This document shows, in pieces, positions 16,931-63,072 of a DNA stretch of 64,000 nucleotides. The stretch lies in assembly GCA_048939245.1 (NCBI GenBank), contig JBHLPR010000004.1, positions 1 through 64,000 on the forward strand, read 5' to 3'. A model generated the notes under the pieces. The model was not told where the DNA came from, did no database searches, and was given only the letters and a program-made list of their open reading frames with translations. The stretch is from Promethearchaeota archaeon (GTDB taxonomy: Archaea; Asgardarchaeota; Hermodarchaeia; Hermodarchaeales; Hermodarchaeaceae). A program made the position numbers and the translations under genes. Position 1 is the stretch's first letter, and each line of letters begins with the position of its first letter.

Positions 16931-17572
16931 TCAACGTCGTTTTGATCCTTGAAGGCTTTGCTCAATGCGGTGAAGACCACTAGGAGTATTCACATTAGTG
17001 AATGTGAGAAGTTTGCTGTCAAATCTTTGAAGGGCAGTAGTTGAAAGGTATATCACACGCCCGATATTATCAATCAGACATTGCATCCGTTTATTTTGTT
17101 CTTCAAGACACGTAGATGCCACTTCTTGGGCGATTTCTGTTGCATAAACTGAGTGGAGCGGTTCGACCCAGCCATTAGGCCAGCGTGGAACAGCGGCATG
17201 ATGGTTTTCGACCATACTCCAAAGAATCTCAAAAAACATTTCATGGATTAACGGAGAATCGCAAGGGAGTAATTGGGTATATGGGCTCTTAGCGTGTTGA
17301 AAGGCGGTTAAAGCCCCAGCTAGAGGGCAGCGGATATCAGTCTTGATGTCTGTGAAGATTTGTTCTTCAGAGTAATGTGCAGAGAATAATTCACGATCCT
17401 CTATTGAATGGACGATTATGAGTATTTCATTTGCATAAGCTTCACAGGCATCCACCACATGTAAGAAAAGAGGTTTGCCTGCGACTATTGCAAGGGCTTT
17501 AGAGGGTTTGAAACGGTTACTTTGTCCACCGGCTAAGATCGCGACAGTAACTGGTTGCACTGCTAAATCCAC
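16931..17572 (-). CDS. mobA: Molybdenum cofactor guanylyltransferase
   Basis: ILAGGQSNRF..KAL, PLAG, LPCDSP, EPLHSVY, FTNVNTP. Confidence 0.93.
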   Translation of the reverse strand: MDLAVQPVTVAILAGGQSNRFKPSKALAIVAGKPLFLHVVDACEAYANEILIIVHSIEDRELFSAHYSEEQIFTDIKTDIRCPLAGALTAFQHAKSPYTQLLPCDSPLIHEMFFEILWSMVENHHAAVPRWPNGWVEPLHSVYATEIAQEVASTCLEEQNKRMQCLIDNIGRVIYLSTTALQRFDSKLLTFTNVNTPSGLHRIEQSLQGSKRR

Positions 17573-22490: not shown

Positions 22491-22640
22491 AATCAGGTCG
22501 TTCGGGACTCCGTTCTTCCCGCTTAAGAGTTTGCCGACGTCAAGGACGAATACTGAAGGAAACCTATAAAGACGAGAACCACTGCTGCAATCTTATCAGT
22601 GCATTACTGATTTCAGTGGAATACCTCGAGTGTGAAGCAT

Positions 22641-23249
22641 ATGGGCGATAAAATCATCAAATATCATGTCCAAAAAGACCAGTTGGTCCGAGTTCCCTCA
22701 GATTACCTGAGTGAGTTCGCTACGGGCGATGTGTACCTGGTTGACACGGGAAGTGTCATTTATTCATGGATTGGAAAAAAAGCCACTCCAGATGAACGTT
22801 TCATCGGAGCTATCACATCCGTATGGAAAGACCAAGATAGGAAGGGAGCAGCAAAGTTAGTCACGATTAGCGAAGGTAAGGAACCCAAAGAATTCTTGAA
22901 ACTCTTCAAAGACAAAATCACGATTACAGAACAAGACACCGAAGGAATTCTAAAACGTGTAGCCCTCAAACACCACGAATTCAAGCTGTTTCGTGTCCAT
23001 ATCGAAGACGATTTGAATTTGTATTATGAAGTCGACTGCTCGAAAGAATCCCTCGCGTCGGATGATGTCTTCCTTTTAGATACCTATAATGAAATCTATA
23101 TCTGGCGTGGTCAAAAATCCACAGCATTTGAACGATGGGAAGCGATGAACATCGCCGAAGGTTACGATGCACAACGCACAAGTCGTCAAGAAATCATTAT
23201 TGTCGAAGAAGGCGAAGAGCCAGAAGACTTCTTAGAAATTCTCGATTAA
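22641..23249 (+). CDS. Two-domain gelsolin (Asgard 2DGel-type actin regulator)
   Basis: Two gelsolin repeats (GDVYLVDTG..IYSWIG...EGKEPKEF; DDVFLLDT..IYIWRG...EGEEPEDF) joined by an ILKRV linker. Confidence 0.9.
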   Translation: MGDKIIKYHVQKDQLVRVPSDYLSEFATGDVYLVDTGSVIYSWIGKKATPDERFIGAITSVWKDQDRKGAAKLVTISEGKEPKEFLKLFKDKITITEQDTEGILKRVALKHHEFKLFRVHIEDDLNLYYEVDCSKESLASDDVFLLDTYNEIYIWRGQKSTAFERWEAMNIAEGYDAQRTSRQEIIIVEEGEEPEDFLEILD

Positions 23250-31936: not shown

Positions 31937-32045
31937 TTCCACAAGTAGCTATGCTGAAAAAATCGTAGTTTGGGCGAACCGCTTAAATGACAGAACTGCA
32001 CTGTAAACCTGCACCCTATGTTAGGTGCTAAATGAGGTTTACACT

Positions 32046-33443
32046 ATGACGACCAAAGATACCGATGCAATCCTCTCTACCCCGCGATCACGAATTACAA
32101 AGCATGTCATTTGTCCGTTTTGCGGTTGCCTCTGTGATGATATCGAAGTTGCAGTAACCTTAACTGGTCCTCTCCCTCGTGTTCCGGAAGGAACGATTGT
32201 AGAAGCATTAAATGCCTGTCGTATTGGACATACCAAATTCCTGAAGGTGCGAGATGAGTATCGGATTTACAAACCTGAAATACGGTCAGGGAAGGATAAA
32301 TCGCAAATTAAACAGGTGTCCTTAGAGGAAGCTGTGAAAGTCGCGGCCAAAATCCTTGCCAATGCAAAACGTCCAGTGATTTATGGATTAGCAAGCACCT
32401 CCAATGAGGCAAATGTGAAGGCCTTAGAGCTTGCAGAGGTTTCAGGTGCAGTCGTCGACAATACTTCTTCGGTGTGCCATGGCCCAGGAATTGAAGCCAC
32501 GCAACGTGTTGGGATTGGCACCTGTACTCTGGGTAAAATCAAAAACTATTCGGATCTGATTGTTTATTGGGGTTGTAATCCGATTGCGGCGCATCCACGG
32601 CATACACGACGGTATTCACAATTTATTGAAGGCTTATTCCAACAGGTGGAAGATCGGAAGGTCTATCATATCGATGCCCGTCCCACACGATTCACTGATC
32701 AGGTTACAAATTCGATTATCGTTGAACCGAACAAGGATTATGAACTGCTGCAGGCAGTCCGAGCACTTCTGCGAGGCAAAGAGCTACAAGCCTCCGAAGT
32801 AGCCGGGGTCCCAATGCGACAAATTCGGGAGTTTACGAACGATCTCAAAAGTGCCAAATTTACCACTATTTTCTTTGGATTGGGATTAACCCAGACCCAC
32901 GGAAAAGACCACAATGTAACGGCAGCTATCGATTTAACCGCAGATTTGAATCATCACACAAAAGCAGTGATTATGCCCTTGCGAGGGCACTTTAACGTTA
33001 CCGGTTCGAATCATGTATCTACATGGACTTACGGTTACCCCTTTTGTATAAGCCTGGAGCATGGAGCCCCTTACTATATGCCCGGAGAAACGAGTGCAGT
33101 TGACGTGTTAGTCCGGGGTGAAGCGGATGCCTTCTTTGCTATCGCAGCGGATCCCGCGGCTTCATTTCCTATGCCCGCTGTGAAAGAAATGATGAAAATC
33201 CCTGTGATTGTTTTGGATCCTAAGCGTTGTGCCACAACTGAGATCGCTGATGTTGTTCTCCCTTCAGCATATGTGGGCATTGAAGCAGATGGAGTGCAAA
33301 CCGCGTATCGAATGGATGGAATTCCCCTTCAATTAGACAAAATCGTTGATGCACCTGCAGGCATCAAAAGTGATGACCAGATTCTCGATATGATTGTTCG
33401 TGAGGTTTGCAAGCTCAAGAAGATCAAACGTTACCCGGAATAA
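32046..33443 (+). CDS. fwdB: Formylmethanofuran dehydrogenase subunit B (Cys form)
   Basis: CPFCGCLCDD, SSVCHGP (TGC, not TGA), WGCNP..AHPRH, PLRGHFNV, AYRMDG. Confidence 0.95.
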   Translation: MTTKDTDAILSTPRSRITKHVICPFCGCLCDDIEVAVTLTGPLPRVPEGTIVEALNACRIGHTKFLKVRDEYRIYKPEIRSGKDKSQIKQVSLEEAVKVAAKILANAKRPVIYGLASTSNEANVKALELAEVSGAVVDNTSSVCHGPGIEATQRVGIGTCTLGKIKNYSDLIVYWGCNPIAAHPRHTRRYSQFIEGLFQQVEDRKVYHIDARPTRFTDQVTNSIIVEPNKDYELLQAVRALLRGKELQASEVAGVPMRQIREFTNDLKSAKFTTIFFGLGLTQTHGKDHNVTAAIDLTADLNHHTKAVIMPLRGHFNVTGSNHVSTWTYGYPFCISLEHGAPYYMPGETSAVDVLVRGEADAFFAIAADPAASFPMPAVKEMMKIPVIVLDPKRCATTEIADVVLPSAYVGIEADGVQTAYRMDGIPLQLDKIVDAPAGIKSDDQILDMIVREVCKLKKIKRYPE

Positions 33444-39290: not shown

Positions 39291-40157
39291 CTATCTGACC
39301 TTTTTTCGATAGCGATTTCCAGTAGGAGTATTTGCAAGACCACCTTGTGCAGTTTCTCGAAGACTTTCGGGGAGGGCTTCACCAACTTCCCCCATAGCAT
39401 CAATCACTTCATCCACAGGAATTCGACTCTTTATGCCTGCAAGCGCAAGGTCTGCGGCAAGAATTGCTTGCATAAGCCCTCCAGCATTACGGAGAACGCA
39501 GGGAACTTCAACTAAGCCTGCAACGGGATCACAGACAAGCCCCAACATGTTACTCAGGCAGAGGGCTACTGCATGGCCAACCATGGTTGGGCTTCCCCTG
39601 GCGAGTTCGGTGAGGACACCTGCAGCCATAGCTGCCGCAACGCCACATTCCGCTTGACAACCTCCTTCCGCCCCAGATATGGAGGCATTAATTGAACAGA
39701 CGATTCCGATACCAGCGGCAGTAAACAGTGCCGTAATAATGGACTCTTCTTTCACTTGAAGTCGTTCTTGAGCTAGCATCAGGGCTGCAGGAACAATTCC
39801 ACAGCTTCCTGCTGTCGGACATGCCACAATACGTCCCATTGATGCATTGACTTCTGCCACACCTAAGGCTCGCGCAACAGCCCGGGTTACTGATGGGCTC
39901 AAATATTTGGATTCTCGTGAGAAAAAGAGCTTTCCATCACCCCCACTTAAGCCACTAACGGAATACACATCCTCAGTGACACCGCGCTCCATTGCCTGTT
40001 TCATAACCTCCCAAGAAATTACCATTTGTCCACGAATGGTATCAGGAGCCTCACCTTCTTGCTTTGCTTCCACAGCAAGGACAATTTCACCAATGGGCTT
40101 TTTCTCTCGCCCAGACATTTTGATAAGCTGTTTCATTGAATCATAGTACATTCTCAT
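39291..40157 (-). CDS. sdaAA: L-serine dehydratase (Fe-S) alpha subunit
   Basis: NASMGRIVACPTAGSCG, GAEGGCQAECG, GLVCDPVAGLVEVPC, RETAQGGLA. Confidence 0.96.
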   Translation of the reverse strand: MRMYYDSMKQLIKMSGREKKPIGEIVLAVEAKQEGEAPDTIRGQMVISWEVMKQAMERGVTEDVYSVSGLSGGDGKLFFSRESKYLSPSVTRAVARALGVAEVNASMGRIVACPTAGSCGIVPAALMLAQERLQVKEESIITALFTAAGIGIVCSINASISGAEGGCQAECGVAAAMAAGVLTELARGSPTMVGHAVALCLSNMLGLVCDPVAGLVEVPCVLRNAGGLMQAILAADLALAGIKSRIPVDEVIDAMGEVGEALPESLRETAQGGLANTPTGNRYRKKVR

Positions 40158-40170
40158 TCACCTAATCGGG

Positions 40171-40842
40171 TCAATAGATGGGAGGAATTAACCGCACAAT
40201 CTGTGCTTCATTTTCCAGTTCAGCCAGTGCTTCAGGTGGGAGTGGTTGATCCATTTCTACTGCCATAGCAGCAAGCCCCCCGCGGTGTTGCCGGCTAACA
40301 TGCATATTTGAGATATTGACTTTATTTTTCGCAATCACGGCAGTAGCCTTTGCTACAATGCCGGGTCGGTCGCTATGTATAGAAATCAGGGTATGATATT
40401 CTCCAGAGAGGGTAATTGGCAGCCTGTTAATCTCAACAATGCTGATATTACCCCCGCCCACAGAAATCGCAGTGATTTCAAAATGCGTTTTGCTGTCGCC
40501 TTCGATGAGAAGGCGAATTGTATTCGGATGGTAATCATCCCCCAAATCGACCTTTTGAAATTTAACAGCCATTCCCTTATCCTTAGCAAGTTCAAGTGAG
40601 GATTTAATTCGTTCATCAGCTGCATCAAAGCCCATTAATCCTGCAATCACTGCTTTGTCGGTTCCATGACCCTTTCCCGTTAAAGCATAGGAACCATGCA
40701 ATTGGATAATGGCTTTTTTTACCGGCTCTCCCAGAATAGCACGGCTTATTTGCCCTATTCGAACAGCTGCTGCGGTGTGAGAACTGGATGGCCCAATCAT
40801 TATGGGACCGATAACTTCGAAAACACTGTCAGCTTTGCCCAT
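40171..40842 (-). CDS. sdaAB: L-serine dehydratase (Fe-S) beta subunit with ACT domain
   Basis: IGPIMIGPSSSHTA, GHGTD, HPNT, DRPG. Confidence 0.96.
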   Translation of the reverse strand: MGKADSVFEVIGPIMIGPSSSHTAAAVRIGQISRAILGEPVKKAIIQLHGSYALTGKGHGTDKAVIAGLMGFDAADERIKSSLELAKDKGMAVKFQKVDLGDDYHPNTIRLLIEGDSKTHFEITAISVGGGNISIVEINRLPITLSGEYHTLISIHSDRPGIVAKATAVIAKNKVNISNMHVSRQHRGGLAAMAVEMDQPLPPEALAELENEAQIVRLIPPIY

Positions 40843-40919
40843 ATACTCCACCATCTATTGGTGGTTTCAGGCTTCTTCTTAAACGATTCGCCATACAGAT
40901 GAAAACTGATTCTAAGTCT

Positions 40920-41216: not shown

Positions 41217-42047
41217 TTAGCCGATGATATGCGGTAAAGGTGTGATCATGAGGAAATACCAAATAAAGAAGCTAGTCAAGAAAAGACTTGTTAGGACGAT
41301 AAGCCAGTCCTTTTCGACAAAGTCAGGGAAGGCGAGGAATGTTCGATTCGGGGCATAGCCAAAGCCTCGCCCATCCATGGCTAGAGTGAGGGCATCAACA
41401 CGCCCCAATGCTGAAAATATGAGCGGCATGAAGGTATATTTAATTTGACGAAGGAATCCTCGAATAAGCCCTTGATCAACAGGAATCCCCCGTGCCCGTT
41501 GGGCAGATTGAACGGTATTTGATTCTTCGTCAAAAAGGGGAACTAATCGTAAGGCGAGGACGAGAGTATACGCATATCGGTAGGGAATTCTAAGTTGGGT
41601 CAAGGCAGCGGCGAAGCGACTGGGATCGGTGGTGGCGACGAATAAGGCGCTTGCTGAAACGATGTTTATGAGACGAAATGCCAGATTGATGGTATTGGCG
41701 AATCCTAGGATAGTTATTGGGAAAAAAGGACCGAAGCCAGGTGCAAGGGGTGGTATAAGATGGAAGAGAACTGTCCCATAGGGTGTGAAGAGAAGTTGGA
41801 CAAGTGCAATGAGAAGGATGAAGGTTAGGAGCCGTCGAAGTCGCCCAAAGGCGTAGCGTAGATTGATACCGGCACCAATGTAGCCGAGGAGAAGAAAACC
41901 AAAGATACACAGGGAAATAATGTCGGAGACCAAGGTTACTGTGAGAATCACAATTAGGATTAAGACTGCGAATTTTGTCAAAGGGTTTAAACGGTGAACA
42001 AAGGAGTTCCGTTGAAGGTAGCCAAAGGAGGAAGTGCGCATCATCAT
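41217..42047 (-). CDS. ecfT: ECF transporter T component
   Basis: HRLNPLTK, ALRLVP, AQRARG, AMDGRGF. Confidence 0.93.
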   Translation of the reverse strand: MMMRTSSFGYLQRNSFVHRLNPLTKFAVLILIVILTVTLVSDIISLCIFGFLLLGYIGAGINLRYAFGRLRRLLTFILLIALVQLLFTPYGTVLFHLIPPLAPGFGPFFPITILGFANTINLAFRLINIVSASALFVATTDPSRFAAALTQLRIPYRYAYTLVLALRLVPLFDEESNTVQSAQRARGIPVDQGLIRGFLRQIKYTFMPLIFSALGRVDALTLAMDGRGFGYAPNRTFLAFPDFVEKDWLIVLTSLFLTSFFIWYFLMITPLPHIIG

Positions 42048-43627
42048 TTTTCAGAACCACCCTCCGTATTCGTTGCTCTGTGTCTTGGTTTTGTTTGTTC
42101 GAGCGTGGCAGTATATTCTAGGCCTTGTTTGACAGGGGCATCGATGAGTAGTTGACCATCAAAGAGGAATAATAGCCGTTGACAGTATGTTTCAGCGATA
42201 GCTGTGTCATGGGTAGCAATCAAAATGGTCGTACCTTGTAGAGCTTCTTGTTGAAGAACCGTCATCAAGCGATGAACGTTGCGATAATCTTGTCCAATGA
42301 AGGGTTCATCCAAGAGGAGGAGTTGTGGGTTATGGAGCATAATGGAGGCGATGGTTAGGCGACGTTGTTCCCCTAAGCTTAGGGTATACGGTGACTGATC
42401 TTCGTAATCTAGAAGCTCAAAGATTTCTAGCAACTCCTTAGCTCGTTTTGATGCAGCTTGAGGCTCTGGAACCCCAAGATGTTTTGAAGCCAGAAGAACC
42501 TCTTCTTTTACAGTGGACGCAAAAAGTTGGTGAAGGGGATTTTGAAAAATGAAACCAATGTCGCGAGCTAGCTTCGAAACGGGTTGTTCATGGACATTTT
42601 GGTTTCTCAAATGAACTGTTCCCGAATCCGGTGTAAGAAGTCCCATGAGCTGAAATAAGAGGGTTGATTTTCCTGAGCCATTAGCTCCCATTAATGCGAC
42701 CATTTCTCCTGGACGAAAAGACAGGGTAAGATGTTGAAGCGCTGGTTGGGTAAGCGATTTCTCTTCCATTTGCGGATAAGTGAAGCTGAGATTTCGAATT
42801 TCTAAAAGGTTCTCTTCTGAGAGTTTCGTGGCTGATGACCTGTCTGAGTATGCGGATGGATGAAGAGCTACTCCCAAGTCCGTGAGTTTTTTGGATTGAG
42901 TTGAAAGCAGGTCTGAGGAGCCATCAAATGTAATCCAGCCTTTGTTCATAAGCAATATACGAGATGCAATTTTGAGAAAGGGTTGGATTCGATGTTCAAT
43001 GACAAGGATTGTGATGCCTTGTTGATGGAGTTTTTGCATGACCTTGATGAGTTCGCTTGTGGTTTGAAAATCAAGTCTGGCTATTGGTTCATCAAAGATA
43101 AGAATAGGTGGTTGGAGCGCTAAAAAGGAGGCGATGACGACCTTCTGTTTTTCACCTCCTGAGAGGGTGTGAGTATTACGGTTGTGAAGGTTTTCTGCAT
43201 TAATTGCATTTAATGCCCAGCCAATTTGAGTTGCTATTGTCTCAGGAGGGTGCTGGAAGTTTTCAAGGCCAAAGGCGATTTCATTTGATACTTTGAGGGT
43301 GACAAGTTGGCTGTCAGGATCTTGTTGTATAAGGCTAATAGATTGGGCTAGGTGGGGAATGGAGTTGGATTTGGTGTCTTGATTTGCGATGCTAACAGTT
43401 CCCTCGAATTGACCGGGGTATTCATTGGGGATGAAGCCCGTTAAACAGCGGGCAAATGTGCTTTTTCCACTTCCACTGGGTCCGGCAATAATGACGAATT
43501 CCCCTGCGAAGACGTCTAGATTGATTTCGTGGAGGGCTGGTAATTTATTGCCTTCGTAGGTGTATGTTAAATTAGAGATATGAATGAGGGGATCTTGTGA
43601 ATTGATTGGGTTATTAGGTGATGACAA
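42044..43627 (-). CDS. ECF transporter ATPase (fused A-A')
   Basis: GPSGSGKS/LSGGEKQ and GANGSGKS/LSLGEQR. Probable TTG start at 43627. Confidence 0.93.
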   Translation of the reverse strand: MSSPNNPINSQDPLIHISNLTYTYEGNKLPALHEINLDVFAGEFVIIAGPSGSGKSTFARCLTGFIPNEYPGQFEGTVSIANQDTKSNSIPHLAQSISLIQQDPDSQLVTLKVSNEIAFGLENFQHPPETIATQIGWALNAINAENLHNRNTHTLSGGEKQKVVIASFLALQPPILIFDEPIARLDFQTTSELIKVMQKLHQQGITILVIEHRIQPFLKIASRILLMNKGWITFDGSSDLLSTQSKKLTDLGVALHPSAYSDRSSATKLSEENLLEIRNLSFTYPQMEEKSLTQPALQHLTLSFRPGEMVALMGANGSGKSTLLFQLMGLLTPDSGTVHLRNQNVHEQPVSKLARDIGFIFQNPLHQLFASTVKEEVLLASKHLGVPEPQAASKRAKELLEIFELLDYEDQSPYTLSLGEQRRLTIASIMLHNPQLLLLDEPFIGQDYRNVHRLMTVLQQEALQGTTILIATHDTAIAETYCQRLLFLFDGQLLIDAPVKQGLEYTATLEQTKPRHRATNTEGGSEK

Positions 43628-44669
43628 GGCTGACGACCTTCTCCACCCAATACCATCCTGGGTAATTCTTCGCCACAAGCCTGAGTCCATCCTCGATTAT
43701 TAGGATAATTTCATTATCACTTAATACCTCTTCGAGGGAGAATATTGTACTATAGCCATCTGAAGCCACTACCTGAAGTGTGGTAGCAGATTCTAATGGT
43801 TGAGCATCAACAAGGATTATGGCTATTGGAACACCGGTGTAATTTTGTGCGGGAAGTTGTGTTACGGATCCAATGAGTTGAGCTTCGAAGGTAACCTCCT
43901 GATCCACATAGGTGGAGTATGAAAAACGAAATGGTTGTGCTACTTGACCAACAATTTCACAGCTGTGTGGATCAATAGTAGGTTGCCATACAAAGACCGT
44001 ATAAAGACTGGCACCGAAAGCAAGAATAATGAGAAAAATGAGGGCTGAAAGTCGATAAGGTCCTAGACGCCGCCAAATTGATCCTTTTGCTGTCACACGT
44101 GGACCATTAATTGCTGTGCGGTAGATACTGGATTCCAAGACGAGTTGCGTTGTTGTATATCCGAAATAGCCACTGAAAATAACGCCCGATGAAAAAGCTA
44201 GAATAACTAAGAGGGCGAGGAATATCAGAGGTGCCCCTGAAAAGAAGAATAATTGGAAAATAATAACATTAGATGCGGAAGCAAACCCTCCGATGATCGA
44301 CTGCAGCAGTAATGAATCTCGTTGCCCAATTGCGTAGAATCCGATGTCGATTATTAGCCCTTGAATAAGGCTGACTAAAACGACAATTATTCCATGGGTA
44401 CTTCCAGTGAAGAGCTCGACAAATCCTTTCAGCAGACCTGTGGCGGTTGCCGCCCCTGCTTTTCGGGTAAGCCCCAATGCTAAGACAAGCCAAAATACAT
44501 GGAGACCACTAAGAAACTGTCCAGCTCCGAAAGGGGTTCCGATGGCAGTATTCAAGAGAAGACCGAGATAACCAATAAAGGTGCTTAAAACCCCCCCGAG
44601 TGCACTTAATACCGCGATAGTAACTAAATCGCGAGTCCCAAAATAATAGGAAGGTTGGGAATCAGTCAT
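43614..44669 (-). CDS. ECF S component fused to a C-terminal molybdopterin-oxidoreductase-like domain
   Basis: TRDLVTIAVLSALGG, RKAGAA and QGLIID mark the S domain. An extra TM follows, then IVGQVAQP..YTGVP..VVASDGY..LRLV..YWVEKV. Confidence 0.8.
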   Translation of the reverse strand: MTDSQPSYYFGTRDLVTIAVLSALGGVLSTFIGYLGLLLNTAIGTPFGAGQFLSGLHVFWLVLALGLTRKAGAATATGLLKGFVELFTGSTHGIIVVLVSLIQGLIIDIGFYAIGQRDSLLLQSIIGGFASASNVIIFQLFFFSGAPLIFLALLVILAFSSGVIFSGYFGYTTTQLVLESSIYRTAINGPRVTAKGSIWRRLGPYRLSALIFLIILAFGASLYTVFVWQPTIDPHSCEIVGQVAQPFRFSYSTYVDQEVTFEAQLIGSVTQLPAQNYTGVPIAIILVDAQPLESATTLQVVASDGYSTIFSLEEVLSDNEIILIIEDGLRLVAKNYPGWYWVEKVVSLVIT

Positions 44670-44690
44670 GTGTTCACCTTACATGGTTAG

Positions 44691-45803
44691 CTACGGAGGA
44701 AAACTATCTCGAACAATTTCAATTATGGAGACATATTTTACCCACCGTGCACTCGCTGAACCGGAGAACCAAGATGGATGGGTGGTTTGACTAGCATCCG
44801 TATTGCTATAGCCTCCATCCGGTGCGAGAAAGACGAGCTGTGGACCATAATCCCAGGCAGGAACAATGTCCCCGTTGTAACTATAAGCAAATATTAGATC
44901 GCCTTGAATCGCTTTTATCGAGCTGTTTGGATAAAGGTTGTAATAGGCAAATAATTGATAGTAACCGTCGTTTGCAGTCACATTGACAAAATCATTATCA
45001 TCGATTATTGTTACTAGTTCAAGAATGGCGGAAAACGGAACACCGATATAAGTGCCATTACCTCCCCAGCTCCCAGTATATTTTTGGTAAGCAGAATAGC
45101 CTTCAAGACTATCCATCAACGCAAGATCCACCAGATACACCTTGTACTCCTCATCACCATCGATTATCGTAAAGTGTAAAGATCCACCAACGTAGACATC
45201 TTGGAGTATTTCGATGGATGCCACGTTGGAAACCCAACGCGCCCCCGCACTCCCCGAGAACCAAGCAGGATGGGTCGTCTGAGCGGCATCATCATTACTA
45301 TACGCTCCGTCATCGGGGAGAAATGCAATTCGGGGCCCATCCTCCCAATCTGTTGGCGTGGTGCTGTTATACGAATATGCTAAAATCAAATCACCTTGCA
45401 CCGGCGCAAAGGACGCATTCGGATACAGGTTATAATAAGCAAAATATTGGATATAACCATCCGTGGCATTTACTCGAATTACATCATTCGTGTCTATTCC
45501 ACCAACAAGTTCAACGATAGAAGATATTGTTACTCCAACATAGGTTCCACTGCCTTGCCAATTCTCAAATCGATTCTGATAAGAGGAATCACCTTCTGTG
45601 GGTGTTAGGGTGAGTAGTGTTGAATAATTGAGGTTGATTATGGTATCTCCATTGATAACTTGAACATCGACATCAGCTGCAGGCGGTTGGAAGGAGGGGG
45701 GAGAAGTCAGAATTCTAATTCCAACGATAGCGCCAGCCGCTACAACGATTGCAACAAGAACAATTACTACACCATATTTGAGATTTTGGTGAGATTCTGT
45801 CAT
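44691..45803 (-). CDS. Membrane-anchored surface protein with two tandem molybdopterin-oxidoreductase-like domains
   Basis: N-terminal TM; two repeats of GTY.GV...A.DGY...LI.AYSYN...GP...ARWV..V..IEI; many NxS/T sequons. Confidence 0.75.
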   Translation of the reverse strand: MTESHQNLKYGVVIVLVAIVVAAGAIVGIRILTSPPSFQPPAADVDVQVINGDTIINLNYSTLLTLTPTEGDSSYQNRFENWQGSGTYVGVTISSIVELVGGIDTNDVIRVNATDGYIQYFAYYNLYPNASFAPVQGDLILAYSYNSTTPTDWEDGPRIAFLPDDGAYSNDDAAQTTHPAWFSGSAGARWVSNVASIEILQDVYVGGSLHFTIIDGDEEYKVYLVDLALMDSLEGYSAYQKYTGSWGGNGTYIGVPFSAILELVTIIDDNDFVNVTANDGYYQLFAYYNLYPNSSIKAIQGDLIFAYSYNGDIVPAWDYGPQLVFLAPDGGYSNTDASQTTHPSWFSGSASARWVKYVSIIEIVRDSFPP

Positions 45804-45838
45804 GGTTGAAGACCTTCATCGCTTTAAGAAATTGTTAA

Positions 45839-45860
45839 GATATGCATATTCGTGCATATC
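45839..45860. promoter_or_regulatory. Operator-like palindrome upstream of the ECF operon
   Basis: GATATGCA-N6-TGCATATC, just downstream (minus strand) of a TATA-like GCTTAATAA. Confidence 0.55.
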
Positions 45861-46967: not shown

Positions 46968-47159
46968 GTATATTTCCCCTGCTCGATTACGAGCGTTATC
47001 TCACCTCAGGGTATCTGCGTATAAGGCTTACGTTTTCAACCAAATATTAAAGGATGCTGAGAAATTCGGAACGGCAGAACGCTTAATTAGCTGTACCGCA
47101 GTAATCCGATGTATCTGCCCGAAGCAGGAGCGCATCCCATCAACCCCTGGTGCAATAAC

Positions 47160-48869
47160 GTGAAACCCCAAAGTATGCTTATCAAAAATGGCTTTGTCAT
47201 TGACCCCAAGAACGAGATTTTCGAAGTCAAGGATCTAGCTATACAAGACGGAAAAGTGGTGGAATCCGTTAAACCGGAATCAGCGGAAATAATTGATGCA
47301 GAAGGACGCATGGTCGTCCCCGGTGGTGTAGAAATTCATGCCCATTTGGCAACACCGAAAGTTGATTCTGGTCGGGTTCTTCGATGTGATCAATCACGAA
47401 TGGACCCATATACCTATTCAGATATCTGCCGAGCGGGAGTTTGGGCAAGTGTTCCTCCAACCTTCATGACTGGATACAAATATTCACAAATGGGCTATAC
47501 CTTCGTTACCGAAGCAGCTTCTGCAGGATTGGTAGCTAGGCACACGCACGAAGAACTTGCTGAAATCCAACCACATGACAAAATCATGTTCCCACTTTTT
47601 GGCAACTATCAACTCATCATGGACTATTCCCGAGAAAAGGAGTATGAGAAGCTTGCAGGATTCGTGGCATGGATGCTTGCAGCTACAAAGGGCTATGCTA
47701 TCAAAGCCGTCAATCCTACAGGAGTTTGTGACTGGTCTTGGGGTGGTAATGTTGAGAACCTCGATGAACCAATTGCCTGCTTTGACGTTACTCCTCGTGA
47801 TGCGGTAACCGCTTTACTTGAAGGTGCTGAGAGACTTGTCCTGCCGCACTCACTTCATCTACACGCGAATATGCTCGGTCGTCCAGGAAATATGGATATT
47901 ACGATTGAGACCATGGAACTTGCGAGTAATCGCCCAGCAACGAAACGTGCTTCAGGGCACAATCTCCATATGACACACATCCAATTCCATGCTTATGGTG
48001 GAGATAGCTTCATCACTTTCAAGAGCGCAGCAGAACCCATCGCCAAATACATCAAAAGTCACAAGAACATCAGTTGCGACTTAGGACAAGTTGTCTTCGC
48101 AGATACCACAACCATGACTGCGGATGGCCCGTGGGAATGGATTCTTCGTGGCATCTCAGGAAGCCGGTGGGTGAATGATGACATTGAAGTTGAGTGTGGC
48201 GGAGGAGTCGTACCTTACGTTTTTAGAAAAAGCTCACGAGTCAATTCGATCCAATGGGGTATCGGACTCGAAATTGCACTTATGGTCAATGACCCATGGC
48301 GGGTTATCCCAAGTACGGATCATCCCAACGCTGGAACCTTCATCAATTATCCATCAATCGCCGCCTGGTTGATGAGCAAGAAAGCCCGGGAAGCGGTCTT
48401 AGCTGAAATTAGAGGCTCAGCTAAGAAGCGGATGGACCTTCCTGCTCTCGAAAATGAATGGACTATGAATGAATATATTATCTCTACTCGAGCAGGACCA
48501 GCACGAATTCTGGGATTACCCAATAAGGGACATCTTGGGGTGGGAGCTGATGCTGATGTCGCGTTTTATGATTTAGATCCCAAGGAAGATTATGCTAATA
48601 ATCCGGATAAACTAATTCGTGGATTTTCGCAAGCATGGATGACCATCAAAGATGGCCGTATTGTTCAGAAAGCTGGCAAAATGGTTGCCACACCAAAAGG
48701 GAGCACTTATTGGGTTGATGCCCAAGTTGAACCAGAACTGGCAAAGGAAGTCGAGAAAGATATTCGAGAGAAATTCATGAGCTCCTATACGATTTCCTAT
48801 GAGAATTACCCTGTATCCAAACGATATCTTCACCGGTCTGCCCCTGTCAAACTCGAAGGAGCCAGCTAA
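47160..48869 (+). CDS. fwdA: Formylmethanofuran dehydrogenase subunit A
   Basis: PGGVEIHAH, MGYT, KAVNP, HSLHLHANMLG, HIQFHAYG, TMTADGP, STDHPN, GHLGVGADAD. Confidence 0.96.
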   Translation: MKPQSMLIKNGFVIDPKNEIFEVKDLAIQDGKVVESVKPESAEIIDAEGRMVVPGGVEIHAHLATPKVDSGRVLRCDQSRMDPYTYSDICRAGVWASVPPTFMTGYKYSQMGYTFVTEAASAGLVARHTHEELAEIQPHDKIMFPLFGNYQLIMDYSREKEYEKLAGFVAWMLAATKGYAIKAVNPTGVCDWSWGGNVENLDEPIACFDVTPRDAVTALLEGAERLVLPHSLHLHANMLGRPGNMDITIETMELASNRPATKRASGHNLHMTHIQFHAYGGDSFITFKSAAEPIAKYIKSHKNISCDLGQVVFADTTTMTADGPWEWILRGISGSRWVNDDIEVECGGGVVPYVFRKSSRVNSIQWGIGLEIALMVNDPWRVIPSTDHPNAGTFINYPSIAAWLMSKKAREAVLAEIRGSAKKRMDLPALENEWTMNEYIISTRAGPARILGLPNKGHLGVGADADVAFYDLDPKEDYANNPDKLIRGFSQAWMTIKDGRIVQKAGKMVATPKGSTYWVDAQVEPELAKEVEKDIREKFMSSYTISYENYPVSKRYLHRSAPVKLEGAS

Positions 48870-59682: not shown

Positions 59683-60579
59683 CTAATCGAGAAGGGATTT
59701 CAGGTGGAGTTTGTGTTTTCCGAGTTTACCTTCGAAGTTAACGGCGGTGACCCGAACTAAACCAGGGGCCTTCACAGCCGCCTGTAAGGCCGCACGCATG
59801 CCGTCTTGCACAGTATTCTTGCTCAGACCGTTGAGTACAATCTCGAGGACACAATTCACATCGGAGGGAACAAGGGAATTGGGGACATGTTCCCGGAGCG
59901 TAGGACAAAGCCGCACATTCGTTGAGGCGGCTAGAAAATCGTATTTGGAACCTACTTGGCTTCCGCTGCGACAGATTCCACCGGGGAAGGGAGCCACACA
60001 CCCATCGACAGTATGAATTGCGTCAACGGCGTCTTCAGCGGCTTTTAACGTAGCCTTGGGGCTCTTACCCATCAGAATCAGGTTTCCACCACCGACTCCT
60101 TTCTTGATCCCAAATTTCTCTTCGATCACGAACTCTCCTTCGATAACAGGAATCCGCCAAGCAAGTAGTTTATCTCCTACACGCTTTCTGTCTTCAAAGC
60201 CATCACCAAAATAACGGAGCTGATTTCCAACATCAACCCATTCTTCAGGATCATCCAAGGCGTTGTAAACATTTGTGGTTGGACACGTGAGAATGCATTG
60301 TCCTGTTCGTTTCCGAAGCTGTTTTGCTAAATCTTTCGACTTCATAGCAGCAAAGAGCAGTGTAATCCCGTGTCGCTTATCTGGCGTCTCAGTCTTGGGA
60401 ATCACTCGGTCGATTCCTGCTTCAACTTTACATTCAATTACTGATGTGGCAAATCCAGCTGCAGATAAAGCGCAGGTCTTCGCCCATTTCGCCGTTTCCG
60501 CAGTCATCAGAATACGGGCAACTTGCATATCGAAGGCTTCAGCGAAGGTGTCTTCGATTTCTACTCCATTCAGTTCCAT
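59683..60579 (-). CDS. ftr: Formylmethanofuran-H4MPT N-formyltransferase
   Basis: IEDTFAEAF, GQCILTCPT, RYFGDG, GVGGGN, PFPGGICRSGS, NFEGKLG. Confidence 0.97.
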   Translation of the reverse strand: MELNGVEIEDTFAEAFDMQVARILMTAETAKWAKTCALSAAGFATSVIECKVEAGIDRVIPKTETPDKRHGITLLFAAMKSKDLAKQLRKRTGQCILTCPTTNVYNALDDPEEWVDVGNQLRYFGDGFEDRKRVGDKLLAWRIPVIEGEFVIEEKFGIKKGVGGGNLILMGKSPKATLKAAEDAVDAIHTVDGCVAPFPGGICRSGSQVGSKYDFLAASTNVRLCPTLREHVPNSLVPSDVNCVLEIVLNGLSKNTVQDGMRAALQAAVKAPGLVRVTAVNFEGKLGKHKLHLKSLLD

Positions 60580-60731
60580 TGATTAAACCCCGATTAGTCG
60601 TAAAGAGTTAGTAGGAGCAATAATAACATTACCATCCAACGGAAATTTATTTTAGTGTTTCACTACTCGCTTATTTAGAAGAGAGACCTAGAGCCTTTAT
60701 TGCTGTTATTTGGTCTGAGACTCTGCTTGGG

Positions 60732-61071
60732 TTAGGTTTCATTTAGATTTTCCATCGCATGTTCTATGACCTTAACCAAAGTTTCGTATGGAATCTCATC
60801 CGTAATTTTGAAGTTAATACTTGCCTGTTGTTATTCCTGGATGCTTTGCTTTAAACAGCGCTATGTGACCGGTATTATTTGTGTATACTAAGACGCCACC
60901 TTTCCTATAACCTAAGGCAACCCACCCCGATTCAACCTTGTAAGTCGGTATTTTGTATGATAATCGGGCTTGAGCATTCGGATAGAGCCGCATTATCACT
61001 GCTTGGAACCTTTCGAAAGGCGTTTTTCGTTCATCCACCACTTCATCAATATATCTTTGAATTTCGTCCAT
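60732..61071 (-). pseudogene. DUF1801/YdhG-family gene with a frameshift
   Basis: Frame stops at TTGKY* (60814). The expected C-terminus SINFKITDEIPYETLVKVIEHAME..* continues in another frame to 60732. Confidence 0.75.
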
Positions 61072-61211
61072 CGCTTTCCAATCTCCTTTTCTCGTTTCAT
61101 CGTTGCTTATTTATGGATAATGATAAATAACCTAAATCCGTTTATGGTAGTTCCACGAATGGCGATTATCCTTTCAAAAGACAAAATAACGTGAATGGAG
61201 CAATTATAAAG

Positions 61212-62105
61212 ATGGCTGCAGCGAAACTCATTCTCCGACCACTCATCAAAACCACAGAAAAGATTCCTCTTGATTTGAGCACCGTTTCACCAGATACGGT
61301 AGCTGGCAAGACGCTTGCTAAAATTGAGAAGATTAAAATTTGGCATGGAAACCGAAGGACTACACTCGACAAATTCTTTGAAGTATCTGGAAAACCAGCA
61401 AAGATCGCTGATAAAACGATTATAGTCGTTGAAGGAACCATTTCACAGGTTCGCCATTTTGGACAGGATATGACCGCGGGATCCATTATCATTAAGGGTG
61501 ACGCGGGAATGCATCTAGGCGCCCGAATGAAAGGGGGAACTATAGAGGTCAAAGGGAATGCAGATCATTGGCTTGGTGCAGAAATGTCTGGCGGGACAAT
61601 TCGGGTAGTAGGAAATGTCGGTGACAAGGCTGGGTCAGCCTATCTCGGCAGTAAATATGGCATGAATGGAGGAAATCTGTATGTCAAAGGGAACGCAGGA
61701 CATGAATTGGGAATGGGAATGCGCCGAGGGATAATCGTGGTTGATGGCGACACAGCATCCTATACTGGAACGCGAATGCTTGCGGGAACGATTATTATTC
61801 GGGGTCAATTAGGTGATCGCGCAGGGGCTGATATGCGATATAAAGGAACAATAATCGCTCTGGGCAAAGCGAAACCACCGATGCCTACACACCTATTCAA
61901 CGGCGAATATTCGGATATGGTCTTTCTCCGGCTCCTCATGGATGCTATTGAAAAGGAGATTCCAGGTGTCACATTCACTGAAAATGAGCGAGTGGGTCCG
62001 TACCTTCGATTTACTGGCGATTTTGGATCGGGTGGCCGGGGCGAGCTTCTTTTCTTCAAGTCAGTAAATAATCATATTCTGAAGGTCGGAAAGAATGGTG
62101 GTTAA
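61212..62105 (+). CDS. fwdC: Formylmethanofuran dehydrogenase subunit C
   Basis: GxxMxxG beta-helix repeats, AYLGSKYGMNGG, GMRRG, FTGD..GRGEL. Confidence 0.95.
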   Translation: MAAAKLILRPLIKTTEKIPLDLSTVSPDTVAGKTLAKIEKIKIWHGNRRTTLDKFFEVSGKPAKIADKTIIVVEGTISQVRHFGQDMTAGSIIIKGDAGMHLGARMKGGTIEVKGNADHWLGAEMSGGTIRVVGNVGDKAGSAYLGSKYGMNGGNLYVKGNAGHELGMGMRRGIIVVDGDTASYTGTRMLAGTIIIRGQLGDRAGADMRYKGTIIALGKAKPPMPTHLFNGEYSDMVFLRLLMDAIEKEIPGVTFTENERVGPYLRFTGDFGSGGRGELLFFKSVNNHILKVGKNGG

Positions 62106-63072
62106 AACAAAACCTAGTGTCAACAAGCTTGCTATGCCCCTTGTGAAACAGCTTATTGCTAAAAAAGACGTACTTCGCATCAACGTCCATCAAACCAAGG
62201 GCAAAGCAACCATCATTGATTGTGGTATAGATGCTCCTGGAAGCCTTGAAGCAGGCCGCCTCCTGGCAGAAATCTGCATGGGTGGATTGGGATCTGTTGA
62301 AATTGCCACAACTAGTATCGGCGGATCCACCTTCCCTGCAGCTCGTGTTTCTAGTGACCACGCAGCCCTCGCGTGCATTGGGTCCCAGGCAGCCGGATGG
62401 AATGTCAAGGTTGAAGGGTTCTTTGCTTTAGGGTCGGGTCCAGCGCGGGCCAGTTCTCGCGTTGAAAACAAGCTTTTTGATAAACTTGGCTACCACGACA
62501 AACACAAAGAAGCTGTACTTGTGTTAGAAACCCGAACACTCCCTAATCCTGCAGTATGCGAACATGTTGCTAAAGCCTGTAAAATCGATGAAAAAGATCT
62601 CTATCTCCTCGTCGCGCCTACTGCCAGTATTGCTGGTTCTGTTCAAATTGCCGCACGTATTGTCGAAACTGGCATTCATAAACTCAAAATTTTAGGATAC
62701 GACTTCCGGAAGGTCCTTAGCGGAATCGGATCATGTCCGATTGTTCCTGTTGCCAGGAAAGACATGCGGGCAATGGGAATAACGAATGATGCAATCCTAA
62801 TGATGGGTGAAACGTTCCTTTTCATTCAGTCCACAGAAGGTGATGGTTTAGATGAACTTATTCAACAAGCACCATCCTCAACTTCATCAGATTACGGGAA
62901 ACCCTTCCACCGAATTTTTAAAGATGCCGAAGGGAATTTCTACAAAATAGATAAAATGCTCTTTGCACCAGCGCATATGACAGTCAATGATCTCCGCACA
63001 GGTCTATTCCACATCGCGGGGCAACTTGATCCGAAGCTTTTCCTTAAAGCTCTAGAATTTACCCTTAAATGA
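62095..63072 (+). CDS. mch: Methenyltetrahydromethanopterin cyclohydrolase
   Basis: SVNK, ICMGGLG, GSQAAGW, GSGPARA, VAPTASIAGSVQIAARIVETG, TNDAI, FYKID..LFAPA. Confidence 0.97.
   Translation: MVVKTKPSVNKLAMPLVKQLIAKKDVLRINVHQTKGKATIIDCGIDAPGSLEAGRLLAEICMGGLGSVEIATTSIGGSTFPAARVSSDHAALACIGSQAAGWNVKVEGFFALGSGPARASSRVENKLFDKLGYHDKHKEAVLVLETRTLPNPAVCEHVAKACKIDEKDLYLLVAPTASIAGSVQIAARIVETGIHKLKILGYDFRKVLSGIGSCPIVPVARKDMRAMGITNDAILMMGETFLFIQSTEGDGLDELIQQAPSSTSSDYGKPFHRIFKDAEGNFYKIDKMLFAPAHMTVNDLRTGLFHIAGQLDPKLFLKALEFTLK

Follow-up and report, generated by a model that had tools for sequence, protein, structure and literature searches.

Which compound is imported by an energy-coupling factor (ECF) transporter that carries domains with the fold of sulfite oxidase (SUOX) on its outer side? 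The question is raised by an operon at 41217-45860 of a 64,000-nucleotide stretch of DNA from a Promethearchaeota archaeon (contig JBHLPR010000004.1; the whole stretch is called the window here), where four open reading frames (ORFs) of the same direction on the minus strand encode an anchored protein, an S-component fusion, a double ECF ATPase and EcfT. The substrate is very likely some form of tungsten or molybdenum (W/Mo) pterin cofactor, and it seems likely that the importer takes up ready-made, metal-loaded W/Mo-pyranopterin for organisms auxotrophic for the cofactor. The imported metal is probably tungsten, which we prefer because of the AOR-family genes, the TupA cassettes and the P3-less RNAs described below.

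A first-pass annotation, made without database searches, had read the operon as a two-domain surface protein, an S component with a third copy of the domain, fused ATPases and EcfT, and both the ORFs and the family scans bear this out. The products and the elements in front of them are as follows.

44691..45803, minus strand: capture protein, 370 amino acids (aa), N-terminally anchored, with two Cys-less SUOX-fold domains (PF00174 scan, predicted structure)
45192..45683, minus strand: SUOX-fold domain 1 of the capture protein (residues 41-204), with an invariant N77 at the Mo-Cys position; D115/Y117/W190 fit the PruR pterin-contact pattern by motif
44694..45191, minus strand: SUOX-fold domain 2 of the capture protein (residues 205-370)
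43614..44669, minus strand: S-component fusion, 351 aa, with a YkoE-fold core of six transmembrane (TM) helices (residues 9-195), a basic flexible linker, a seventh TM helix (residues 204-227) and an extracellular SUOX-fold domain 3 (residues 232-351)
42044..43627, minus strand (longest ORF open to 43690): fused A-A' ECF ATPase, TIGR04520/TIGR04521 above cut-off
41217..42047, minus strand: EcfT membrane scaffold, 276 aa, PF02361 at E 6e-29
45839..45860, no strand assigned: 22-bp palindrome (8-6-8), candidate ModE-type operator with TATG-N10-CATA as its core, located 36 nt upstream of the first start codon
45868..45883, minus strand: promoter block resembling a B recognition element and TATA box upstream of the operator, conserved in six upstream regions; putative function

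In the Pfam/NCBIfam scan PF00174 matched the 370-aa protein at E 1e-5, the S fusion matched PF09819 and, weakly, PF00174, and the two ABC domains of the ATPase exceeded the ECF_ATPase_1/2 cut-offs. The ATPase likely starts at the TTG at 43627, giving 527 aa, because its orthologs measure 527-528 aa. The closest relatives carry Hermodarchaeota or Promethearchaeota labels, and the host is an Asgard archaeon of the Hermodarchaeota type.

Importer and cofactor-synthesis genes in Asgard genomes

The occurrence of the importer was compared with that of cofactor-synthesis genes across 261 Asgard genomes with a completeness of 80% or more. Searches recovered the S fusion in 73 of them and moaC in 108, with no genome yielding both (in G112 the S fusion is a weak partial match only). 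Importer and moaC types both occur inside six genera, never in one genome; in one Asgard family 43 of 69 genomes have the S fusion and 21 have moaC, in another the numbers are 16 and 2 of 19, and in the family of our own genome 17 genomes have only the importer and 2 only the moa genes. Fisher tests overstate the significance of such counts since kin are not independent, and we therefore placed the weight on these swaps within genera. In three families with many genomes having neither moaC nor the importer, moaC was counted in 2/27 (f4), 29/64 (f9) and 0/9 (f25) genomes; genomes with neither may have no W/Mo enzymes or may use another route.

A panel of genes was then compared between 53 carriers of the importer and 23 moaC-positive kin. 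The gene moaE was present in none of the carriers vs 22 of the kin, moeA in one carrier vs all 23 kin, and tupA in two carriers vs 21 kin; TupA was used for metal uptake in place of the PF13531 (ModA-type) profile, which was uninformative. AOR-family genes were found in all 76 panel genomes, in 2-13 copies. The first-pass annotation had proposed a comparison with loss of moaA, moaC and moaE, and among these Asgard carriers moaC and moaE were indeed missing, and a moaA-like gene was present in one carrier; the carriers devoid of Mo/W enzymes that it had considered were not encountered, AOR-family genes occurring in 53/53. Two further genes served as controls. The methanopterin gene mptG was found in 14/14 tested genomes of our own family and was missing in other carriers, so that it follows the family and not the importer, and thiC was found in none of the tested genomes, carriers or non-carriers.

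Our own genome (2.52 Mb, 88% complete) was searched for moaA, moaC, moaE, moeA, tupA and wtpA, and none was found; it retains FwdB, an MsrP-like enzyme, a MobA-like protein and eight AOR-family genes. The same pattern was seen in the single-contig 4.9-Mb genome G217, which has the importer and 10 AORs, and in which a moaA ortholog, moaC, moaE, moeA and tupA were not found; therefore assembly gaps do not explain the missing genes. The G217 importer (L094:9677-13208) is a minimal S-A-T set that lies within a few kilobases of an AOR-like gene; it has no capture protein next to it, and the kinase was not found in this genome.

The converse case is provided by the genus-mate G057. Its operon is cleanly absent at the syntenic site within a long contig, and elsewhere it carries a tupABC-modE-moaB-moeA-MOSC-moaA-moaC cassette; G265 likewise carries the cassette and lacks the importer. 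The serine dehydratase gene sdaAB, located downstream of the operon in the window (39291-40854), is absent from G057 together with it, which suggests one deletion or insertion block. The de novo cassette (L097 and L108, of G057 and G265) includes MOSC, and moaE was not found in G057; MOSC may replace the sulfur-transfer step.

Outside our own family the S fusion was found in records labelled Hermod-, Thor-, Loki-, Hod- and Odinarchaeota, in Thermoplasmata and in anaerobic bacteria, e.g. Syntrophomonadales. The S-A-T core is constant across loci and is preceded by one to several SUOX-fold domains. A calcineurin-like phosphoesterase is linked in 49 of 92 loci, often fused to a SUOX-fold domain, and an APH/RIO-like kinase, on either strand, in 43 of 92. 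In the panel, 40/53 of the carriers and 1/23 of the moaC-positive kin have the kinase, and it and often the surface phosphoesterase appear to be part of the system. In bacteria the neighbours of the importer include moaA/C, moeB, tupA, wtpAB and modD: L080 sits after tupB-moaA-moaC-MOSC-moeB and tupA, L075 adjoins wtp genes and L043 follows modD. At L101:6313-8253 the kinase gene is separated from the phosphoesterase-S-A-T genes by one for a molybdopterin enzyme of the DMSO-reductase family.

Candidate operator and riboswitches in front of the importer

The palindrome with an N6 spacer that had been noticed before the operon is present at 45839-45860 and, judged by its sequence, fits an archaeal ModE box. 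The ModE motif of M. acetivorans, validated by an electrophoretic mobility shift assay, is a 22-bp RTTATGT-N8-RCATAAY-like element (PMC12327845). In our genome the palindrome is the sole site at no more than two mismatches, and a scan of this genome with a position weight matrix revealed no further convincing operator ahead of any W/Mo gene. In the orthologs it is conserved with a variable spacer, downstream of the TATA-like block, and it was present in 19/19 genomes of the family vs 2 control matches. In G057 and G265, the sole one-mismatch copy lies about 60 nt before moaB of the moaB-moeA-MOSC-moaA-moaC genes, with weaker copies before tupA; the cassettes of another Asgard family bear the operator before tupA and moaA. 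Other archaeal carriers have related sites ahead of their capture gene, and in G090 a second copy stands before the gene of a 525-aa protein that includes a homologous domain. The sole ModE-like protein found in our genome is of 130 aa and consists of the helix-turn-helix (HTH) part only, without a Mop domain. On contig C70 (L092:814-2115) its gene lies head-to-head with that of the APH/RIO-like kinase, an arrangement kept in two genus-mates; such a protein would possibly sense the cofactor through a partner.

In bacteria, molybdenum cofactor (Moco) riboswitches precede six importer loci (L009, L039, L069, L070, L075, where they are in tandem, and L080); L043 and L056, whose upstream regions were in view, are without one. 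The three that we inspected do not have stem P3, and P3-less RNAs of the Moco/tungsten cofactor (Tuco) family RF01055 have been tied to tungsten cofactor metabolism (PMC2408646). The same study reports RNAs of this kind ahead of S. wolfei genes labelled 'putative sulphite oxidase', and these genes possibly correspond to the SUOX-fold domains described here. None of the other metabolite riboswitches, including those for thiamine pyrophosphate (TPP), B12, FMN and tetrahydrofolate (THF), was detected by Rfam at the scanned loci, and Rfam gave no match in the window or in any of the loci from archaea. Just upstream of one riboswitch-controlled copy of the system, at L009:2302-3253, we also observed MotA/ExbB-like and DUF2149 genes.

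SUOX-fold domains and the S core

The two repeats of the 370-aa protein are 51% identical, and the third copy, in the S fusion, is shorter. When the three domains were aligned, the motifs YxG, AxDGY, G(P/L)xL and WV were common to all. The 370-aa protein contains no Cys, and the single Cys of the S fusion (C237) lies in the first strand of domain 3, away from the metal-ligand position. The alignment thus agrees with the earlier statement that the YxGV, AxDGY, (GP/L)RL and WVxxV motifs are kept and the Mo-ligating Cys is lost, and the three domains are presumed to be non-catalytic. The first protein had been described as a surface glycoprotein; seven sequons, vs 3.0 expected (p=0.018), are only suggestive of glycosylation. 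A Pilin_N match in this protein (E 0.025) was rejected since Glu at +5 is absent, and the segment was read as a plain signal anchor.

Sequence-only searches of the PDB with the 370-aa protein or a close-family profile gave no meaningful match, and the relation to SUOX was recovered only by a wider profile or by fold. The predicted structure of the protein (pLDDT 90) consists of an N-terminal helix and two domains. The best structural matches of the capture domains were PruR entries, 7kp2 with Z 15.4 (domain 2; root-mean-square deviation (rmsd) 2.8, 137 residues aligned) and 7rkb with Z 14.0, compared with Z 9-13.5 for Moco domains of the sulfite oxidase family and about 5 for unrelated folds; domain 3 gave Z 15.8 to 2blf and 13.6 to 7rkb. 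The SUOX fold that the first-pass annotation expected was therefore found by structure comparison. In a profile alignment, N77 of domain 1 stands opposite the Mo-ligating Cys of the MsrP-like enzyme of the same genome, and the hairpin is not shortened.

PruR provides a solved precedent for a pterin-binding function. It is an exported Cys-less SUOX-fold protein in which the pterin is stacked between Tyr and Trp and contacted by an Asn (PMC11194511), and conserved Asp/Tyr/Trp sets that match this pattern by motif occur in all three importer domains (D115/Y117/W190, D279/Y281/W354 and D304/Y306/W341). The importer domains probably work like PruR. Among stand-alone relatives, six short ones (P0337, P0342, P0345, P0350, P0355 and P0356) have kept a hairpin Cys close to the Mo-ligand position and may be metal-ligating carriers. 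Bacterial surface proteins such as P0311 (1556 aa) and P0373 (1234 aa), seen at L021, L036 and L069, have up to 8-10 copies of the domain and in some cases an S-layer homology (SLH) anchor; it is possible that they act as cofactor 'sponges'.

The predicted S core resembles YkoE (5edl) with Z 23.8, rmsd 2.5 and 185 residues aligned, and metal-transport S components with Z 8-11 only. It is joined by a low-confidence basic linker to the seventh helix and then domain 3, which in this model should face outward. Thiamine is contacted in YkoE by W49, E77, Q95, Y46 and D131 (PMC5037267). Of these, E77 and Q95 are kept as E85 and Q103, and H57, S/A54 and Q139 stand in the places of W49, Y46 and D131. 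We infer that the kept Glu/Gln pair with a changed W/Y/D set fits another ligand with an aminopyrimidine edge, e.g. a pterin. S, the ATPase pair and T are encoded together and S has the six-helix fold, so the system is a member of the group I (dedicated) ECF transporters and not the YkoE thiamine transporter.

Probable substrate, proposed uptake route and known systems

The importer undergoes a near-exclusive swap with the pathway of metal uptake, pterin synthesis and metal insertion, and it would thus stand in for the whole set of tupABC, moaA/C/E/B and moeA. Metal-loaded pyranopterin is the simplest substrate because the insertase (moeA) and the tungstate transporter (tupA) are missing too. 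The suggestion of the first-pass annotation that non-catalytic domains bind Mo/W-pterin or another pterin is thereby supported as regards the cofactor; the missing genes do not favour another pterin. Uptake could proceed as follows. Scarcity of cofactor or metal would release the ModE-type operator. The three SUOX-fold domains outside the cell would bind the labile pterin-dithiolene and shield it, the cofactor would pass to the pocket of the S component, and A-A' and T would drive toppling of the core, as in the known ECF mechanism, the seventh helix and flexible linker keeping domain 3 outside. Co-occurrence suggests that the APH/RIO-like kinase on contig C70 restores the terminal phosphate and that, in relatives, the linked surface metallophosphoesterase trims a nucleotide or phosphate ahead of uptake. 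The cofactor would then reach the eight AOR-family enzymes and the MsrP-like enzyme and, through the MobA-like protein, Fwd. Two of these possible recipients are encoded in the window.

32025..33443, plus strand: FwdB, pterin-cofactor client outside the operon, TIGR03129 above cut-off
16931..17572, minus strand: MobA-like guanylyltransferase, NF001457 at E 4e-31, below cut-off

These had been proposed as the proteins supplied. Both are present, and the MobA-like protein could convert the imported cofactor to the guanine dinucleotide (MGD) form; the main clients are probably the eight AOR-family enzymes elsewhere in the genome and not only the nearby Fwd and MobA. The Fwd and tetrahydromethanopterin (H4MPT) genes, namely fwdB, a fwdA-like amidohydrolase, ftr, a fwdC-like GXGXG protein and mch, are scattered in the window (32025-33443, 47109-48869, 59683-63072), which also contains a two-repeat gelsolin-domain protein of the Asgard eukaryotic-signature type (22632-23249).

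Several observations weigh against uptake of the loaded cofactor by auxotrophs. In most organisms free Moco is described as not stable enough to be taken up (PMC9026282), the ligands of PruR are small non-Moco pterins (PMC11194511), and the pterin-contact residues of the importer were assigned by motif match alone. Most of the genomes are incomplete bins, and related ones are not independent. The fragmented bin G080 has tupABC-moaA and moaB-moeA on broken contigs in addition to the importer and probably has both systems; the bacterial locus L080 combines the importer with de novo genes, G037 is the carrier with the moaA-like gene, and G033 has tupAB on a 2-kb contig. Because of these exceptions the moaC zero looks slightly better than it is, and prototrophs, too, can use the importer for salvage. 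The kinase is absent in 7/7 tested carriers of family f20 and our own genome is without a linked phosphoesterase, so that the rephosphorylation and trimming steps are not universal.

The main rival substrate is a metal-free or partly degraded pyranopterin (molybdopterin (MPT), dephospho-MPT or an oxidised form), imported by the same system, repaired by the kinase and loaded with metal without MoeA or TupABC. The co-occurrence of kinase and phosphoesterase, the lack of a metal ligand in the SUOX-fold domains and the binding of metal-free pterins by PruR-type domains (PMC11194511) speak for such a substrate, but insertase and tungstate transporter are both missing in nearly all carriers and no substitute for either is evident in the loci, and we consider it unlikely. 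Still less probable, indeed highly improbable, is that the importer moves a W/Mo chelate or oxyanion while the carriers build pyranopterin by an unrecognised, non-homologous pathway. ModE-type operators and Moco riboswitches also govern oxyanion transporters, and presence of the importer goes with absence of tupA; this leaves unexplained, however, both the pterin-binding fold and the joint absence of moaC, moaE and moeA. In addition, the S core belongs to the YkoE type, which handles organic vitamins, and is far from the metal S components, and L075 and L080 have wtp or tup genes beside the importer.

The affinity to YkoE could instead indicate a thiamine/hydroxymethylpyrimidine (HMP) importer, or one for methanopterin, folate or cobalamin, with only incidental links to Mo/W. 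PF09819, the fold and the retained E85/Q103 agree with this, as do the failure to find thiC in the tested genomes, the H4MPT-pathway genes in the window and the MotA/DUF2149 genes at one bacterial locus. Three of the thiamine contacts are changed, however, and TPP, B12, FMN and THF riboswitches are absent from every scanned locus; thiC is missing alike in carriers and non-carriers, and mptG is found throughout the tested genomes of our family but not in other carriers. Methanopterin, thiamine and cobalamin were rejected as substrates on these grounds, and there is very little chance that this class of importer is the correct one.

With metal-loaded W/Mo-pyranopterin as the preferred substrate, we think it reasonably probable that auxotrophy for the W/Mo-pterin cofactor is genuine in many Asgard archaea (Hermodarchaeota, Thorarchaeota and a Heimdallarchaeota-labelled lineage), which would live on the cofactor of their neighbours by a pathway of capture, trimming, import and rephosphorylation, interchangeable with a de novo cassette under the same operator. 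If so, Moco and its tungsten counterpart (Wco) would be a cross-fed 'vitamin' of anoxic communities, the system would include the first named Moco transporter and dephospho-cofactor kinase, and a concrete four-gene transporter with a candidate kinase and phosphoesterase would be open to testing. Cofactor dependence would be added to Asgard physiology, which bears on cultivation and syntrophy. The S component of the system would also have a binding domain tethered on its extracellular side, and the small non-catalytic domains may stabilise Moco, which could be of value in the study of Moco deficiency. New here are the profile of auxotrophy, the absence of moeA and tupA and the sharing of a ModE-type operator; the kind of transporter is known, and its substrate and the salvage route are probably undescribed. 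The first-pass annotation knew of no characterised ECF transporter with this substrate, and likewise no published report of a prokaryotic Moco/Wco importer or auxotroph was found in the literature searched, most subscription journals being outside its coverage.

According to a 2021 review, Moco is made de novo in all organisms save C. elegans, in which the mechanism of uptake is not understood (PMC9026282). Dietary uptake by C. elegans resembles our system in the use of an externally made cofactor; it differs in being eukaryotic and in that the transporter is described as unknown. As to regulation, the operator shares with the ModE regulons of M. acetivorans (PMC12327845) the 22-bp geometry, the TATG/CATA core and the position before Mo/W homeostasis genes, with intermediate sites ahead of tupA, moaA and moaB, differing in the HTH-only form of the candidate regulator, and the riboswitches have the same placing, ahead of Mo/W homeostasis genes, as described for RF01055 (PMC2408646). 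YkoEDC, the thiamine transporter (5edl, PMC5037267), similarly combines a dedicated S component, a fused ATPase and T in one operon and shares the core fold and the Glu/Gln pair that reads the aminopyrimidine, but the importer has a seventh TM helix bearing an extracellular domain and an additional anchored capture protein, and is placed under a ModE-type box or Moco riboswitch, not a THI box.

The capture domains share with PruR (7kp2, 7rkb, 7kom), their top structural match (Z 14-15), the exported Cys-less SUOX fold, and a Tyr/Trp plus Asx pattern is recognisable by motif. They differ in three respects: PruR has Trp, in a PW motif, at the Cys position, where the importer domains have Asn, invariant in domain 1; its hairpin is truncated, whereas that of the importer domains aligns gap-free to the MsrP-type enzyme; and it signals to DcpA-type receptors, whereas the importer domains are tethered to a transporter, with ECF genes as their neighbours at the loci examined. 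With the sulfite oxidase family (MsrP, SorA, SoxC) they have in common the fold (Z 10-16) and the Gx-DG, LR and WV motifs, but not the Mo-ligating Cys, the N-terminal cofactor-capping segment or the dimerisation domain. The importer domains are thus neither PruR proper nor a catalytic sulfite oxidase.

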